Position numbers and translations under genes: made by a program. Shown in pieces: positions 7,572-14,501 of a stretch of 64,000 bases of DNA (position 1 is its first letter; every line of letters begins with the position of its first letter). The stretch is from a virus (Duplodnaviria > Caudoviricetes). The notes below the pieces were generated by a model, which saw only the letters and a list, made by a program, of their open reading frames with translations, made no database searches and was not told the DNA's origin. Where the stretch lies: the IMG/VR virus record IMGVR_UViG_3300037067_016777, positions 205,106-269,105 of that record. The stretch is one strand, 5' to 3'.

Positions 7572-10430
7572 ATGCCGACCTACCTTTCGCCGGGAGTTTA
7601 TCCTAGGGAAATAGACCTTAGTGCAGTTACTGGCCAAACTGGGCCGCTTCGTGCGGCATTTGTTGGAACTGCCAAAAAAGGTCCTCTGAATACTCCAGTC
7701 TTTGTAAGTGGTGCTCAACAGGCTATCGACACATTCGGAGAGCCGTTTGTCGATAGTTATCTGATGTATGCAGTCCTCGCCTATTTGGAGGAAAGCAATC
7801 AAGCATATGTCATTCGGGTTGGTATTGAATGCCAAGATGGACAGCCTGTAGAATTAGGCGATGTTTGTATTGATACTTCTGGATCTCGGGTGAACGGATG
7901 GGGTCGGATTCCAGTATTCACTGGTATCGATTACGGCAAATTACTTATGCGAGCTGTGTCGACAGCTTCGCCCGTTGTCTTTCATGATGCTGCTGTCGAG
8001 AACATAACGTTTACTGATGTTAGTGTGTCAGTTACTGATGGGCCAACCAGCGCAACATTGCAATTCACCGGCGAAACCGATCTAAGCGATAGCTATACTG
8101 GTTGCACTGACGACACTTTTTCATTATTCATTACTGGCGCTTCAGACGATGGATACATGATAAAGGGAGCAACATTCCAGCTATTCCGCAGCCGCGATAA
8201 TGCATTGATGGTTAGTGGTACTTTGGACGAGAAGGTAACGGGGGCTACGAGCACCAGTACTAATATTGTAATCGGTGACGGTCTTGAATGCAACATTCTT
8301 GTTACTGATGGCCGCCTTGACACCAATGACGTATTCTCGTTCACAGCAAAACCGTACAACAGAGAGCTAGAAGTAGAGGTTGAGGGTGTTGGTGGCACTT
8401 ATATTATGCCAGTTGCTACCTATACTTCAGCAGACACTCTAGTTGCCGCAATCAATCTGCTAATTGCAACTGAGGATTATGTTGCTGTTGCAGATACTGT
8501 TGCTAGTGTTGAATATCCAGAATTGCGTACGAAGGTTGCTGGGGATCGTATTCAGTTGATAGGATCATGTGCTTTTGCTTCTGAGGTTGGAGTGCAGCAA
8601 TATGCTTATGACATTCCACGTAGTTATTTGTATGGCTCTGATGCTGAACCATTTTTCATCAACAGCCAAAGTAATCGTGTAGCAATCGACATAATCCCAG
8701 CAGATAGAAGCGACACTATCAGTGTCGCTTTTACTATTCCTGTCGGAACGAATTTGTCAGCTACAACCATAGCAGCGGCCATTAATGGCAATGGGACTTA
8801 TGCTGGCGAGACATACTTTACATCATTTGCTATCACCGCTCCTGGCGATATTCCGCATGTTGTTGTTGTAACTTCAGATGGACATAGGCTTGATCAGCTC
8901 TATTTGAAGGCTAATTACTCCAACCTTAAGACATTGATGTTTGCCGAGGAAATCGGTGTACTTTCTCCTTACACGAAAGCATACCGTGGGTTTTCTGACA
9001 GTCGCGTGTCGCTGCCTGATACTGGTGAAATCACGCCATCTGTGCCGTTATCTTGCGAATTAGCTCCGAGCGGACCAGATTGTGCGCTCGACACAGCTTA
9101 TTTCGCCAATATTGTCGGATGGTTTGTCGCATCGAGCGCTGGGACGTGGTTGGACGATTACACTCTGACGCTCTCACTGCAGACTCAAATTGCAGGCAAT
9201 GCGGCTGCACGTTATCAGTTAACTATGACTGATCCAGACGGTGCTACTGCCGAGAGCATTCAAAATCTCAGTTTCGATAAGACTGACGATCGATATATCG
9301 GTAATGTTTTGAATCCTGGCTCCGCTTACGGTGGAGTTAGTGGTAATGAGTTTATCAATTGGGAAGATCGGCCATCATTCTTAAATAATGATGAACTTGA
9401 TCCAAGTACCTACGAAGTTAGGCAGCCTGCACAGTTGTCGAAGCAGATGTTTGTTGGTGGTACTAATGGCATACCGGTAGATCCAGCATATTCGAGCGAA
9501 TTGGATGCTGCGATTATTGGTAATGCACAAGATTCAAGCGGCATGTATGGTGTGCAGAACTCTGAGACTTATGACATTAATTTGCTGGTAGTTCCAGGGA
9601 TGACATCTGGTGCGGTCATTGGCCAAGGATTGCAACTGTGTGAAAGTCGTGGCGATACCTTGTTTGTCGTCGATCCGCCGTTCGGTCTTCGCCCACAGCA
9701 GGTTGTCGATTGGCATAATGGGATGTTGTTATCTGATCTTTCAGCTGCAATCAATAGCAGTTATGGTGCATTGTATTGGAGCTGGGTGAAGATTTATGAC
9801 CAGTTCAGCAAGCAATACATTTGGGTTCCACCATCTGGTCAGGTTGCTGGAGTTTTTGCTCGTACTTCCAATGTGGCAGAGCAATGGTATGCCCCTGCTG
9901 GTATCAATCGCGGAGTTTTGAATACAGCATTGGACGTTGAATACAACCCAAGCCAGGGAGAGCGTGATCTGTTGTATGGTAGTGGTAATGCTGTCAATCC
10001 ATTGGTATCATTCCCGAAAGATGGTATCGTGGTTTTTGGGCAGCGAACACTGCAACGATCTACCACAGCACTAGATAGAGTAAATGTGCGGATGCTGTTA
10101 ATTTACTTAAAGAAGAATCTGATTCAAACGCTCAGATCATTTGTGTTCGAGCCAAATGATGCTACTACTTGGGCGCAGGTCAGAACGCTAGTTAATCCAT
10201 TTTTGGCAGATATCCAAGCACGTCGTGGACTTGACGCTTACAACGTGGTTTGCGACGAGTCAAACAACACACCGGCGAGACGAGACCTTAACCAATTGTG
10301 GGTATCGGTTTTCATTAAGCCGACGAGAACTATCGAATTCATCGTGCTTAATCTCGTTGTGATGCAGTCTTCAGCTTCCTTTAGTTCAGAGGAAATCTTG
10401 GCTGCTGGTGGTGTCGTAGTAAGCGGGTGA
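7572..10430 (+). CDS. gp18: Contractile tail sheath protein (T4 gp18-like)
   Basis: N-terminal YLSPGVYPREID; C-terminal WYAPAGINRG, GQRTL, RVNVRMLL, FVFEPND, IKPTRTIEFI. Confidence 0.95.
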   Translation: MPTYLSPGVYPREIDLSAVTGQTGPLRAAFVGTAKKGPLNTPVFVSGAQQAIDTFGEPFVDSYLMYAVLAYLEESNQAYVIRVGIECQDGQPVELGDVCIDTSGSRVNGWGRIPVFTGIDYGKLLMRAVSTASPVVFHDAAVENITFTDVSVSVTDGPTSATLQFTGETDLSDSYTGCTDDTFSLFITGASDDGYMIKGATFQLFRSRDNALMVSGTLDEKVTGATSTSTNIVIGDGLECNILVTDGRLDTNDVFSFTAKPYNRELEVEVEGVGGTYIMPVATYTSADTLVAAINLLIATEDYVAVADTVASVEYPELRTKVAGDRIQLIGSCAFASEVGVQQYAYDIPRSYLYGSDAEPFFINSQSNRVAIDIIPADRSDTISVAFTIPVGTNLSATTIAAAINGNGTYAGETYFTSFAITAPGDIPHVVVVTSDGHRLDQLYLKANYSNLKTLMFAEEIGVLSPYTKAYRGFSDSRVSLPDTGEITPSVPLSCELAPSGPDCALDTAYFANIVGWFVASSAGTWLDDYTLTLSLQTQIAGNAAARYQLTMTDPDGATAESIQNLSFDKTDDRYIGNVLNPGSAYGGVSGNEFINWEDRPSFLNNDELDPSTYEVRQPAQLSKQMFVGGTNGIPVDPAYSSELDAAIIGNAQDSSGMYGVQNSETYDINLLVVPGMTSGAVIGQGLQLCESRGDTLFVVDPPFGLRPQQVVDWHNGMLLSDLSAAINSSYGALYWSWVKIYDQFSKQYIWVPPSGQVAGVFARTSNVAEQWYAPAGINRGVLNTALDVEYNPSQGERDLLYGSGNAVNPLVSFPKDGIVVFGQRTLQRSTTALDRVNVRMLLIYLKKNLIQTLRSFVFEPNDATTWAQVRTLVNPFLADIQARRGLDAYNVVCDESNNTPARRDLNQLWVSVFIKPTRTIEFIVLNLVVMQSSASFSSEEILAAGGVVVSG

Positions 10431-10502: not shown

Positions 10503-10655
10503 TTTAGATAAGCATGGACGGCATCGGTCAAGTGGCTATATAAGTGGTTCACTAAAATTATCAATAATCTGTTGATGGTTTAGATAAGTGCGAACAGCAT
10601 CGGTTAAGTGGTTATCTACAAGTGGCTCGCCAAAAGTATCGATAATCTGCTGATT
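10503..10655 (-). repeat. Tandem duplication (about 76-78 nt units) of a tail-sheath-like coding segment at the 3' end of the HNH gene
   Basis: tttagataagcatggacggcatcggtcaagtggctat (10503) versus tttagataagtgcgaacagcatcggttaagtggttat (10579). The distal copy has a 2-nt deletion that creates the HNH stop codon. Confidence 0.85.
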
Positions 10656-11663
10656 GCTTGTGATAACGATGTTGTTGTGTGGGCATCTACCATAGAGGCC
10701 CTTAGCTTTATTACAATTTGCACACAAAAGCTGCAAATAATCTGGATAATCATTAGCGATAATCCAACTAGCAGTTACCTGTTTAACCTCTTTGCGATGT
10801 TCGTTACCATCGTTGTTGATATGATCAAATTCTAAGAAGGCCCAATTAGACTCACCGCAGCAAACGCATTTACCACCGTAATGAGCAATAGCTTTTAATC
10901 GTATTTTGCGATTTTTGTTGTATGGTATAATATCTTTACAATGAGGACAAACTTTGTAATTAGCAACACCGCGATTACAATTCGCACACAATATTCTTAG
11001 ATCAGTTGGGAATTTATGTCTTATTATCCAACTCATCATATGCATACCAACTAGACGTCGATGACGCTTGCCGTCGCCGTTAATGTGATCTACTTCTAAA
11101 AATTCGTAAGTTGTCTCACCACAGCATGCGCATTTTGCACCATAACGATCCAGAACTTTTTCACGGTCTCGACGCCATTTGCGTTTGCTAGCTTCTACGT
11201 GAATGTCGTTACATTTCTTACAGCGTATTGATTCGTCAACAGATAAGTCAACGCCACATACTATGCATTGATTTTTTGCTCTGCGGTCATTGTATCGCTG
11301 CATAATAATCAACGTTTGATAAGCTGTATGGCTAGCACAATAAATCTTGCCTGGTAATGGTGCTTTGCCACATCTAGGGCATAATCCTTTTGCAATCCAG
11401 CGCTTATCATGGACGATGCGTTCTCTTTTGCCTTTCTCTTTACACTTATCGCACATTTTGCCTTTTGTGATGTGCTTCCCACACAAGCAAACTCCTATGG
11501 CTTGTCTGGCTTTCCGAGCAGCCTTTCGTCTCTCGCTTTTCCTGGTCAGACATTTAGAGCACGACGACTTCTCCGAATCGCGAGGACCACCGCACATCAA
11601 ACATAAGTTATTGGTGATACGGTGCTGACGCTGGAGAGGATATTCAGTTTTGCGATCTTTCAT
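10536..11663 (-). CDS. Free-standing HNH homing endonuclease-like protein with N-terminal CxxC repeats and two HNH domains
   Basis: Two copies of YG.KC.CCGE....FLE.DHIN.DG..HR...L..LCANCN, plus several CxxC zinc knuckles. Antisense between the sheath and tube genes. ATG 11663 preferred over the ORF-track start at 11693. Confidence 0.8.
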   Translation of the reverse strand: MKDRKTEYPLQRQHRITNNLCLMCGGPRDSEKSSCSKCLTRKSERRKAARKARQAIGVCLCGKHITKGKMCDKCKEKGKRERIVHDKRWIAKGLCPRCGKAPLPGKIYCASHTAYQTLIIMQRYNDRRAKNQCIVCGVDLSVDESIRCKKCNDIHVEASKRKWRRDREKVLDRYGAKCACCGETTYEFLEVDHINGDGKRHRRLVGMHMMSWIIRHKFPTDLRILCANCNRGVANYKVCPHCKDIIPYNKNRKIRLKAIAHYGGKCVCCGESNWAFLEFDHINNDGNEHRKEVKQVTASWIIANDYPDYLQLLCANCNKAKGLYGRCPHNNIVITSNQQIIDTFGEPLVDNHLTDAVRTYLNHQQIIDNFSEPLI

Positions 11664-11783
11664 GACGCACCTATGGTGAAAATGAACGTCCAATGATTAA
11701 ATACATTTCCACAAACATTGAAATTATGACGAGGGTCTTGCCCATCAATTTGGTGGTCTAACCAACCTCGAAGGAGGGTCTTC

Positions 11784-12290
11784 GTGCCAGGCTTCAACAT
11801 ATGTGGTACAGGTAGCGGGCCAGCCTCCAATTTGGAGACTCGTAGAAAACATCGCTGGGTTTTTCGAACCCTTGGTGATATTAGCTCCGCAGCTTTGCTG
11901 GTCTTACAATCAGCATCGCGGCCGAACTTTAAGTTCGCAGAGCCAGAAATGCACCATGACCAGGAAGTAGCTTACTTCGCGGGTAAGCAGACCTGGGAGC
12001 CGGTGAGTATGAAGTGGTATGACGTTGAGCAAAGCCCAGATGTGTCAGATACAATCTACGTGTGGTTGAACACGGTTTGTGAATTGACCACGGCCACTGT
12101 AGCTGCTCCATCTGTTTACAAGAAGCAAGCTACTTTGGAGATGATTGGTGCTTCTGGCAACACCACAGAGACTTGGACGATGTGTAATGCGTGGCCCAAG
12201 GAAGTGAACTGGGGTGACTTGGATTATACGGCGACTGATATCGTGACGATTGAAGCGACGTTGCGATATGATCGCGCTATGAAGAATTAG
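11784..12290 (+). CDS. gp19: Major tail tube protein (T4 gp19-like)
   Basis: AGKQTWEP...YKKQATLEM...ETWTMCNAWPKEVNWGDLDY...LRYDRA; strong SD AAGGAGG and GTG start. Confidence 0.9.
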   Translation: MPGFNICGTGSGPASNLETRRKHRWVFRTLGDISSAALLVLQSASRPNFKFAEPEMHHDQEVAYFAGKQTWEPVSMKWYDVEQSPDVSDTIYVWLNTVCELTTATVAAPSVYKKQATLEMIGASGNTTETWTMCNAWPKEVNWGDLDYTATDIVTIEATLRYDRAMKN

Positions 12291-12318
12291 TAATTGGTTC
12301 TTCGACGACAGAAATACC

Positions 12319-12365
12319 CGGCCCCACCACATCAAATCTAAAATGTGGTGGGGCCGATTTTATTT
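12319..12365 (+). terminator. Rho-independent terminator after the major tube gene
   Basis: Perfect 14-bp stem cggccccaccacat / atgtggtggggccg followed by attttattt. Confidence 0.8.
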
Positions 12366-12377
12366 GGAGACACTCAA

Positions 12378-12893
12378 ATTCCAGGCTTCAATATCGGCGA
12401 CGTCTATAGTTCTGAAGCACCAACAGCCAAGATCGAGTTGGCGCGCCAACATCGTTGGAAATTTGCGACCTTGGATCCATTGAAAGCAATACTAATATAT
12501 GCACATAAATCCGGCAGACCAAAAATAGAAATCGATAGGGCGACATTACATCATCAACAAGATTGTATTTATTTTCCTGGTAAACAGAAATGGTTGCCAA
12601 TTGATATAACTTTCTATCACACAGTTGGCAGTACTGATTCTGCTTTTGAGATATATAAATGGTGGTCGACAAATGTTATAGATATTACTAAATCTGTGAT
12701 TAGTTTGAAGAAACAAACATGTACCTTGGAATTGCTTGATGGCAATGACGCTGTAGTTTATAAATATATGATATATGGTTGTTGGCCGTCCAAAATTACA
12801 CCAGACGAACTAGATTATGCTTCGTCAAAGATTAGTGAAATCACATTTACGCTTGAAATGGATAAGGCAATTGAGCTACACGAGGAAGGGTAA
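12378..12893 (+). CDS. Tail tube paralogue 2 (gp19-like), probable ATT start
   Basis: (I/M)PGFNIG aligns with MPGFNICG of tube 1. SD GGAGA lies 7 nt upstream of ATT 12378. The ORF-track GTG at 12345 sits inside the terminator stem. Confidence 0.8.
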   Translation: MPGFNIGDVYSSEAPTAKIELARQHRWKFATLDPLKAILIYAHKSGRPKIEIDRATLHHQQDCIYFPGKQKWLPIDITFYHTVGSTDSAFEIYKWWSTNVIDITKSVISLKKQTCTLELLDGNDAVVYKYMIYGCWPSKITPDELDYASSKISEITFTLEMDKAIELHEEG

Positions 12894-12898
12894 TCGAA

Positions 12899-13444
12899 AT
12901 TCCAGGATTTATTGTTGCAACTGATGTTGGTGCCGGAATTGCTGCCACAGAGAACAGCTTAAAACCTGTTTATCAATATACCTGGGAAATTTTTAATCTG
13001 TTTGAAGATACACGCAACTTATTCCCAACAAAATTATTAGCTAAGGATGCTACATTACCAACATTTACTATCGCTAAAGATACGACAGATGGATCGTCTC
13101 TAGTCTATAAATATGCTGGGATGGTTACATGGGAAGATGTCAGGATTACTTTTTATGATGTTGTGGTTGATTCTTCTAATAGGGCGTCAGATATTATTAA
13201 GAGCTGGCGCGAAAGAGTGTGGTCAGCCGATACAGGTCTTAAAAGTCCAACAGATTACAAAAAAGATTCTATTATAAAAGTATACAATTTAGATTTTACA
13301 TCTGTGACAACATGGACTTTACACGGCAGTTGGCCGCAGATTGTCAAAGAGGGCGATTTGACATATACCGCAACAGAAGTGAAAGTCATTGAGGTTACTG
13401 TTGCGTATGATTGGGCCGATTCAATATCAACAGATGAAGAATAG
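12899..13444 (+). CDS. Tail tube paralogue 3 (gp19-like), probable ATT start
   Basis: Frame is open from TGA 12872 through the ORF-track ATG at 13121. It reads (I/M)PGFIV...YTWE...KYAGMVTWEDV...YKKD...WTLHGSWPQ...GDLTY. No ATG/GTG/TTG lies upstream of the PGF motif. Confidence 0.8.
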   Translation: MPGFIVATDVGAGIAATENSLKPVYQYTWEIFNLFEDTRNLFPTKLLAKDATLPTFTIAKDTTDGSSLVYKYAGMVTWEDVRITFYDVVVDSSNRASDIIKSWRERVWSADTGLKSPTDYKKDSIIKVYNLDFTSVTTWTLHGSWPQIVKEGDLTYTATEVKVIEVTVAYDWADSISTDEE

Positions 13445-13508: not shown

Positions 13509-14501
13509 ATGTCAGATCGCGTAGAAGAAGAAGTTCGTCTTACTAGTAGAGAAATCCAACAGCCGCAAGAAACTAAGATATTGACTGAAAAGCCAGTTTC
13601 CGAGCTATCTAAGTTGGTCGGTAATGCAACATCAGATATAGATATTGTTGATATTATTTCAAGAGCTTCGCCTGAGCAACTTATTCCATGGGAAGAGACG
13701 ACTCTTCCTAGTAAGGGTTTATACTATGGTTGGTCGTCTGGTGTAGTATCTGTCAAGGCGTGGTCTGCAAAAGTCGATAAAATCTTAGCTACTGCGAGAT
13801 TAGCACAGACTGGCCAATCAATTGACTATATGCTTCAAGAATGTTGCCGTTTCCCTGACGGTTTCGATATTCAAAATATGCTGGTTGGTGATCAGATTTA
13901 TTTATTATATTATCTTCGTGGCATTACACACGGTAATATTTATGAGTTTGCTTCAACCTGTCCAAACGAGCAATGCCAGCAAGCTGCTACTAATACTGTT
14001 GATTTAAATGATCTTGTTTCTACTATTGTTTGGGCAGATGAATCATTGGGCAACGAGCCATTCAAGATTACATTGCCATATTTGAGCAAAACAACGGAAA
14101 GAGAAATTACGGCATCGATTAGATTTCTGCGAGTACACGATGCTAACACTATCCAAAGAGCAAAAAAAGCGAAGAATATGTTAGTTGGTGGCTCAAGGGC
14201 TAAGATTAAGCCGCGAGAACGTGCTAGACAAATTGTAGATCATAGCCACGACGAAGTAGTACTAGACGATTTAGTGACACAAAATATCGAAACTGTAATT
14301 GTCGATATTATGGGTGTCAATGATAGATTTAAGATTAAAAATATTGTTAATAAAATGCACTCTACTGATATTGCTGTTATTAGAGAATGGTTATCTAATC
14401 ATACTCCAAGTATTGAGACTACGATTGAGATACAATGCGCACATTGTAATGAATCTTATCGTACAATGCTACCAATTACAGAATCCTTTTTTCGTCCGTA
14501 G
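13509..14501 (+). CDS. Baseplate hub / tail assembly chaperone (T4 gp26-like)
   Basis: LPSKGLYY, GDQIYLLYYLR, CP..C, and C-terminal CxxC...LPITESFFRP; follows the tube genes. Confidence 0.65.
   Translation: MSDRVEEEVRLTSREIQQPQETKILTEKPVSELSKLVGNATSDIDIVDIISRASPEQLIPWEETTLPSKGLYYGWSSGVVSVKAWSAKVDKILATARLAQTGQSIDYMLQECCRFPDGFDIQNMLVGDQIYLLYYLRGITHGNIYEFASTCPNEQCQQAATNTVDLNDLVSTIVWADESLGNEPFKITLPYLSKTTEREITASIRFLRVHDANTIQRAKKAKNMLVGGSRAKIKPRERARQIVDHSHDEVVLDDLVTQNIETVIVDIMGVNDRFKIKNIVNKMHSTDIAVIREWLSNHTPSIETTIEIQCAHCNESYRTMLPITESFFRP

Follow-up and report, generated by a model that had tools for sequence, protein, structure and literature searches.

The window, a stretch of 64,000 nucleotides (nt) from a virus of the Caudoviricetes (IMG/VR record IMGVR_UViG_3300037067_016777, positions 205,106 to 269,105), covers a sheath-tube-baseplate block, the tail module of an uncultured giant myovirus. 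It carries three tandem paralogues of the tail-tube protein, here called tubes 1, 2 and 3, whose reading frames open with GTG, ATT and ATT, respectively. Comparison with related phages shows that the rare codons are real starts, but that they are fast-changing weak starts and not a fixed ATT control device. The turnover of start codons is specific to the tube genes and far faster there than in other genes. The explanation that we favour, with a probability of about 0.6, is that the three genes have real starts led by Shine-Dalgarno (SD) sequences, that tube 1 would be abundant and tubes 2 and 3 held low, and that the start of tube 1 would belong to a mobile flank.

Start codons of the three tube paralogues

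All three genes lie on the plus strand: tube 1 at 11784-12290 (168 amino acids, aa), tube 2 at 12378-12893 (171 aa) and tube 3 at 12899-13444 (181 aa). Their products exceed the Pfam cut-off of 28.2 bits for Phage_T4_gp19 (PF06841), with 36.1, 31.1 and 35.4 bits, and match PHROG 4542, 'tail tube protein', with E-values of 4e-24 to 2e-17. As the initial annotation had described, each begins with x-Pro-Gly-Phe behind an SD sequence, namely with GTG CCA GGC TTC at 11784, ATT CCA GGC TTC at 12378 and ATT CCA GGA TTT at 12899. Its description of tube 3 is also borne out: the frame is closed by a TGA (12872-12874) nine codons 5' of the ATT, no ATG, GTG or TTG lies between this stop and the PGF motif, and the first in-frame ATG, at 13121, stands 74 codons into the gene. 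A second candidate start of tube 3 is the in-frame ATC at 12893, two codons 5' of the ATT, which overlaps the stop codon of tube 2 (TAATC). The ATT at 12899 is favoured over this less likely alternative, since the (M)PGF N-terminus is strictly conserved. For tube 2, in-frame GTG codons occur at 12345 and 12348, both within the 3' arm of a hairpin and without an SD sequence.

These starts were compared with those of ~40 distinct contigs of related phages from IMG/VR and JGI metagenomes, ranging from 97% to ~30% identity (L021, L027, L115 and the like are labels of such metagenomic contigs). No phage in GenBank matched at the DNA level, and the only protein matches there were to T4-like gp19, with ~32% identity. 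In all of these contigs that have a recognisable trio, each paralogue begins with x-P-G-F, where x is ATG, GTG, TTG, ATT, ATA or ACG, that is, without exception, ATG or one of its single-base neighbours, a regularity beyond what chance would give. The residues P2, G3 and F4 are invariant across the alignments of all three paralogues. In-frame stops lie 2-25 codons 5' of x in the relatives, often with no canonical start in between. In the closest relative, L021, tubes 1 and 2 begin with ATT and tube 3 with ACG, none of them with a canonical alternative; for its tube 2, a stop is situated 5 codons upstream. More generally, the tube 2 orthologues have ATT, GTG, TTG, ATG or ACG at the aligned start.

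The part of tube 3 that precedes its first ATG is under selection at the protein level, as codons 2-74 show 26-33 synonymous versus 6-8 nonsynonymous differences from relatives of ~85% identity. An AlphaFold2 model of tube 3 (predicted local distance difference test score, pLDDT, 72) contains four β-strands in its first 78 residues, ahead of the first ATG. Foldseek returned T4 gp19 (5w5f) as the top match of this model, with an E-value of 1.4e-9, followed by the KP1 tube, Pvc1/Pvc5, the AFP and AlgoCIS tubes and Hcp; the tube/Hcp-like β-sandwich fold was tested for tube 3 only. Collectively, the comparative, selection and fold data exclude sequencing error, an upstream GTG, an internal ATG and a frameshift fusion as the main explanation.

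The conventional annotation would have tube 2 begin at GTG 12345 and tube 3 at ATG 13121, or take ATT as an assembly error, or join tubes 2 and 3 by a frameshift. Indeed, GTG 12345 shares the frame of tube 2, no canonical codon of tube 3 precedes ATG 13121, and the frames of tubes 2 and 3 would be joined by a -1 shift near 12875-12890. However, GTG 12345, besides its place in the hairpin stem and its lack of an SD, is missing in L021, and a start at ATG 13121 would lose 74 conserved, selected codons together with four strands of the fold. Non-canonical codons also occupy the same position in many independent assemblies, and a fusion is contradicted by relatives with an ATG right before the P-G-F of tube 3, by varied stop-start distances and frames and by the lack of a slippery site. 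We find this conventional reading hardly credible and regard ATT as very probably the real start of tube 2 and, with somewhat less confidence, as probably that of tube 3.

The expectation that standard gene callers would mis-annotate these genes holds in public records, in which orthologues are called either as truncations of 107-164 aa or as an over-extension of 199 aa. Two orthologues of tube 3 (P0001 and P0016) appear there as proteins of metagenome-assembled genomes (MAGs) labelled 'Candidatus Paceibacterota' and 'Candidatus Cloacimonetes', and are probably phage contigs binned into bacterial genomes. For annotation, this means that two of three tail-tube genes are cut or over-extended at the N-terminus, their most conserved part; since the gene calls are wrong, the protein families, structure predictions and virion inventories derived from them are wrong at the N-terminus as well. 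If initiation does take place at ATT, the expected N-terminal peptides are PGFNIGDVYSSEAPTAK and PGFIVATDVGAGIAATENSLK, with or without Met.

Start-codon turnover

In samples of 32 sequences, tube 1 starts with ATG in 20, with GTG in 2, with TTG in 3 and with a rare codon (ATT) in 7. The corresponding numbers are 16, 7, 5 and 4 for tube 2, where the rare codons are ATT and ACG, and 20, 1, 1 and 10 for tube 3, where they are ATT, ACG and ATA. ATT itself accounts for 3-4 of the ~32 sequences for tube 2 and likewise for 3-4 for tube 3. Trees built for each gene require a minimum of 7-11 changes of start codon in tube 1, 9 in tube 2 and 8-9 in tube 3. Conservation of ATT in orthologues, which the initial annotation had put forward as a check, is thus not observed: five other codons are in use at the same position, and each gene has undergone at least 7-9 changes. 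The codon can differ between sequences that are otherwise very close, as identical tube 1 proteins start with ATG in L027 and with ATT in L029 and L030, and the tube 1 genes of the window (GTG), L021 (ATT) and L022 (ATG) form one well-supported clade. Far outside this clade, at ~41-45% identity, tube 1 of three contigs (L115:566, L116:270 and L117:492) begins with ATT. A GGAGG precedes this ATT, the frame is closed by a stop 5 codons upstream, and a canonical alternative is lacking; in the same contigs, ATG is the start of tubes 2 and 3. ATT has here recurred independently on what is presumed to be the major tube gene.

Other genes of the same loci keep their start. ATG is found in 12/12 sheath genes of close relatives, in 20/20 copies of g14772 and in 6/6 copies of g6089, as well as in the hub gene. 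A genome-wide comparison was made between the source contig of the window (269 kb, estimated 74% complete) and two complete relatives (388 kb and 364 kb, 99-100% completeness). The start codon is unchanged in 193 of the 203 cleanly aligned orthologue pairs, 176 of which are ATG/ATG, and the remaining 10 are switches among ATG, GTG and TTG, whereas the tube genes differ in 5/6 comparisons with these two genomes (Fisher's test, p = 5e-6).

A genome-wide relaxation of start selection was ruled out, as the apparent rare starts are nearly all one-codon offsets beside an ATG; a candidate ATC at genome position 155609 was likewise rejected, since a TTG follows it directly. A census of SD-anchored near-cognate codons ahead of the first canonical starts found no enrichment in the genome and, beyond the tube genes, only one good further case. 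This is a P-loop gene (AAA_33-like, sub-threshold) located outside the window, ~10 kb upstream of it (L058:786-1307, positions 195085-195606 of the phage's own genome). Its Walker A motif precedes any canonical start, and the gene begins in a run ATC-ATT-CTG behind AGGAG, the CTG overlapping the TGA of the upstream gene (CTGA). The same arrangement is kept in a relative of 88% identity, L059.

A mobile HNH-like gene beside tube 1

The gene between the sheath and tube 1 (10536-11693, minus strand) is a Cys-rich open reading frame (ORF). Its translation carries two D-H-I-N...C-A-N-C-N motifs of HNH type; no Pfam family was matched at E<=1e-3. Relatives differ in whether they carry this HNH-like ORF, and its distribution on the tube 1 tree requires at least 6 changes of state. 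Its distribution parallels that of the tube 1 start codon, which is ATG in 0/6-7 genes adjoining the HNH-like gene versus 8/10 genes without it. Furthermore, the 45-nt flank comprising the SD, spacer and start codon (the region of 11735-11783 in the window) can be sorted into cassette types whose distribution departs from the tube 1 phylogeny. Type I, found in the window, L025 and L041, comes with GTG or TTG, type II (L033 and L029) with ATT, and type III (L023 and L021) also with ATT. Presence/absence polymorphism at one site among close relatives, combined with linked flanks, is what is expected of a free-standing homing endonuclease. The GTG of tube 1 in the window therefore appears to be part of a flank that spreads with the HNH-like element. 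It is also a possibility that the start-codon changes protect against cleavage by the HNH-like protein.

Initiation strength, the hairpin and possible graded expression

The SD of tube 1, GAAGGAGGG (11770-11778), is separated from the GTG by a 5-nt spacer and has a duplex energy of -12.2 kcal/mol. That of tube 2, GGAG (12366-12369, -6.4 kcal/mol), stands 8 nt before the ATT, and the SD region of tube 3, GAGGAAGGG (12881-12889, -8.5 kcal/mol), lies within the last codons of tube 2. When strong SDs were defined by a threshold of <= -6 kcal/mol, they were found in 28/32 tube 1 genes, in 8/32 tube 2 genes (4 of them with rare starts) and in 15/32 tube 3 genes (9 with rare starts). Within the close clade, the mean SD energy of tubes 2 and 3 is -8.0 kcal/mol with rare starts versus -3.8 kcal/mol with canonical ones (raw Mann-Whitney p = 5e-5), and ATG and a strong SD are never found together in tube 2 or tube 3. 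The stop codon of tube 2 (12891-12893) ends 5 nt ahead of the tube 3 ATT; in nearly all relatives this stop lies 0-13 nt 5' of the tube 3 start, often inside the tube 3 SD. Such close proximity suggests that tube 3 is translationally coupled to tube 2.

The hairpin that the initial annotation had placed between tubes 1 and 2 was confirmed. Its G+C-rich stem of 14 bp (12319-12332 / 12343-12356) is perfectly paired and encloses a loop of 10 nt, longer than typical; an A-TTTT-A-TTT tract follows, the whole element spanning 12319-12365. A hairpin follows tube 1 throughout the close clade, in at least three different sequences, and compensatory changes are seen between the window, L021 and L023. 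The conserved position and these compensatory changes argue for some function. A G+C-rich stem followed by a U tract has the form of an intrinsic (rho-independent) terminator, so that the element is terminator-like and may be regarded as a putative terminator.

Several features distinguish tube 1 from its two paralogues. In the close clade, identity is 88-96% for tube 1, 65-88% for tube 2 and 61-97% for tube 3. There is also a break in composition, as tube 1 has a G+C content of 0.50, and of 0.54 at third codon positions (GC3), versus 0.38 and 0.28-0.33 for tubes 2, 3 and the hub gene (GC3 of 0.33 for tube 2 and 0.29 for tube 3); the sheath gene is intermediate, with a GC3 of 0.39. This break could reflect either expression-linked codon usage or a mosaic origin. 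With its strong SD, best conservation, GC3-rich codons and position right after the sheath gene, tube 1 is probably the major, abundant tube protein. A gradient of expression, high for tube 1 and low for tubes 2 and 3, is plausible from the hairpin, the SD pattern, conservation and GC3. This part of the initial annotation can be retained, whereas its view of ATT itself as the copy-number device is not supported.

The mechanism that we propose is as follows. Tube 1 starts at GUG and tubes 2 and 3 at AUU, each from its own SD-led initiation site one codon before the invariant Pro-Gly-Phe. Tubes 2 and 3 would form low-copy tube-like adaptor rings; the hairpin after tube 1 would lower their output, and that of tube 3 would be limited further by coupling to the termination of tube 2 a few nt upstream. 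Output would also be kept down by the initiation sites of these two genes, in which one element is almost always weak: where the SD is strong the start codon is rare, and where the start codon is good the SD is weak. Since selection would act on the overall initiation strength and not on AUU as such, the start codon would be free to change. At tube 1, the non-AUG start (GUG here) would be part of the flank that travels with the HNH-like mobile gene. The SD/start pattern fits stabilising selection on a low output, and would extend the compensation between GUG/UUG starts and SDs that has been described before (PMC5622118).

A number of observations weigh against this explanation. ATT, which the initial annotation took as the mark of a minor ring, is found on tube 1, the likely major gene, in 5 close contigs as well as in the distant L115-L117; either AUU is not particularly weak in the host when it follows a strong SD, or tube 1 is not the major tube protein. 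The SD energies were computed with a generic anti-SD, which may not be that of the host. Some distant relatives have ATG with a strong SD on tube 3. After phylogenetic correction, the trade-off between SD and start codon comes down to only 2 independent contrasts with good support for each gene; these all point the expected way but do not reach significance. One half of it is moreover non-specific, as any essential gene with a rare start would need a strong SD. As for the link between the HNH-like gene and a non-ATG start, 3-4 of four independent contrasts run in the expected direction and none in the opposite one (p = 0.125-0.25). Finally, the roles of the paralogues, and with them the gradient of expression and stoichiometry, are inferred from sequence features; neither sequence, for which matches in a PDB search were weak and non-discriminating, nor fold separates the roles of the three. 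In particular, the Foldseek matches of tube 3 mix major tubes with baseplate tube-like chains and do not distinguish a tube from an initiator role.

Several of these points would also be accommodated by relaxed constraint with hitch-hiking. In such a scenario, which we consider unlikely though a serious contender, the rare codons would be true starts whose identity is nearly neutral, because strong SDs and termination-reinitiation coupling suffice; turnover would result from mutation, recombination at gene boundaries and the spread of mobile-gene flanks rather than from tuning of copy number. The presence of ATT on all three paralogues, tube 1 included, the movement of the tube 1 start codon with the flanks of the HNH cassette, the identical proteins of L027 and L029/L030 and the loss of significance after phylogenetic correction all agree with near neutrality. 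In an optimised initiation region in vitro, moreover, AUA is on a par with AUG and AUU moderately weaker, the context being the dominant factor (PMC5499595). On the other hand, if constraint were relaxed in this way, other genes with strong SDs or coupling should drift too, yet the start codon is unchanged in 193/203 orthologue pairs, and outside tubes 2 and 3 and the one P-loop gene there are essentially no rare starts. The absence of any close-clade tube 2 or 3 that combines ATG with a strong SD looks rather like an expression ceiling, and it is in conserved, highly expressed genes that selection normally favours AUG most strongly (PMC5622118).

ACG as a possible start codon

ACG stands before P-G-F in tube 3 of five contigs and in tube 2 of one. 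It is always preceded, directly 5' and in frame, by ATT or ATC (ATY), so that two candidate starts are adjacent. The spacing from the SD is 5-6 nt to ACG versus 2-3 nt to ATY; because of this spacing, and since a start at ATY would add a residue to the invariant N-terminus, we favour ACG over the upstream codon, by roughly 60:40. In at least 5 genomes, ACG would combine a strong SD at the optimal distance with the otherwise invariant (M)PGF N-terminus. ACG may thus be a natural start codon in some of the relatives. A non-exhaustive literature search brought up no natural ACG start described from bacteria or phages and yielded only a reporter study in E. coli, in which AUU, AUA, AUC and CUG reached ~1-2% of AUG and ACG 0.1-1% (10.1101/063800). 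A broader proposal is that the whole trio is kept at set expression levels by trading SD against start codon through the full near-cognate series, including an ACG decoded by formylmethionine (fMet), with a mobile nuclease cassette supplying the weak start of the major tube gene. Taken as a whole, this wider proposal is doubtful, although quite possible.

Initiation machinery and host state

A special initiation machinery encoded by the phage was sought as another explanation for the unusual starts. ARAGORN detected four tRNAs in the 269-kb genome, Leu(taa), Arg(tct), Thr(tgt) and Gly(acc), none of which is of initiator type. The tRNA-Gly(ACC) is located at 202034-202105 of the phage's own genome, ~3 kb upstream of the window; the anticodon ACC is rarely seen unmodified in bacteria. 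No gene for IF3_C or S21 was found in the 74%-complete contig. The hub-like protein (13509-14501) gave a Pfam match to IF3_C with an E-value of 0.016 and 15.6 bits, versus a cut-off of 34.8 bits, and this match was judged to be noise. A private start codon read by a phage initiator tRNA was rejected, since no tRNA of this type is present and the start codons are too varied for one anticodon. With neither an initiator tRNA nor IF3_C or S21 found, there is no support for a private start codon or for an initiation factor of the phage.

The initial annotation had suggested that AUU initiation ties tail assembly to the level of host IF3. In a wider form of this idea, AUU and other non-AUG starts would act as a physiological sensor, linking tube synthesis to host IF3, ppGpp, nutrients or temperature, so that tail assembly follows the state of the host. 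The discrimination of IF3 against AUU, as in infC autoregulation, is well established. Nutrient limitation and ppGpp strongly depress non-AUG mRNAs in vitro, and low temperature depresses AUU (PMC5499595). However, a sensor should be conserved, yet near-identical relatives carry ATG, GTG or TTG in place of the rare codon, and the genome contains no pointer to IF3, as no IF3_C, S21 or initiator tRNA was found. The link to host IF3 is thus not supported, and we regard a sensor as very unlikely.

Organization of the locus

The gene order of the locus is tail sheath, the HNH-like ORF on the minus strand, the three tandem gp19-family tube paralogues and a baseplate hub-like gene. The sheath gene (7572-10430, plus strand) matches Pfam Phage_sheath_1 and Phage_sheath_1C. 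The hub-like gene (13509-14501, plus strand) matches Pfam T4_baseplate and a PHROG annotated as baseplate hub, and starts with ATG in the relatives.

Comparison with known systems

AUU starts, sets of tube paralogues, start-codon/SD compensation and mobile nuclease genes are already known. What is new here is the gene-specific, clade-wide turnover of start codons that reaches ATA and ACG, with an apparent SD trade-off and a link to a mobile gene at tube 1.

The trio resembles the sets of a major tube and tube-fold proteins near the baseplate, namely T4 gp19/gp54/gp48, Afp1/Afp5/Afp7 and Pvc1/Pvc5/Pvc7, in that all three proteins belong to PF06841, the model of tube 3 is tube-like and the genes lie between sheath and hub. 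It differs from them by the short length of the proteins (168-181 aa), the absence of any other Pfam domain and the invariant N-terminal P-G-F. T4 gp48 and gp54 are much larger, and Afp7 carries a LysM domain. Tubes 2 and 3 thus share with minor tube or initiator proteins the tube-like fold and a gene next to the hub (13509), but not the extra domains or larger size. The analogy with gp48/gp54 drawn in the initial annotation is only tentative: tubes 2 and 3, with 171 and 181 aa, have no extra domain, and the fold search was non-discriminating.

Compensation between start codon and SD has been described for switches from AUG to GUG or UUG, in which suboptimal starts are paired with stronger SDs; the authors argue that initiation is maximised and that conserved, highly expressed genes retain AUG best (Belinky, Rogozin & Koonin 2017, PMC5622118). 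In the tube genes, in contrast, the switches extend to AUU, AUA and ACG and cluster in three structural genes, and tubes 2 and 3 show a pattern that seems to lower output.

The gene beside tube 1 recalls the 'intronless homing' genes of the seg/mob type in T4-like phages, as a nuclease-like gene is present or absent between conserved structural genes and its flanks travel with it. Unlike these, the HNH-like ORF of the window is only a putative nuclease and has no Pfam match at E<=1e-3. We know of no described case in which a cassette flank gives a non-ATG start to the neighbouring structural gene. The linkage of a mobile nuclease cassette to the start of an adjacent essential gene suggests that selfish elements can reset the translation signals of a neighbour.

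The closest precedents for the AUU starts are E. coli infC, encoding IF3, and pcnB, in which an AUU also stands behind an SD, the level of the product is controlled and the start is missed by standard gene callers. As in infC, AUU lies here behind an SD with no canonical alternative, in tube 3 and, in L021, in tube 2. The AUU of infC, however, is conserved and forms part of an autoregulatory loop of IF3, whereas in the tube genes AUU alternates with AUG, GUG, UUG, AUA and ACG. The tube genes thus constitute a natural allelic series, with six start codons at three sites in ~40 genomes whose other genes stay on ATG, in which it could be examined how start codon and SD jointly set subunit ratios and whether ACG serves as a bacterial start.

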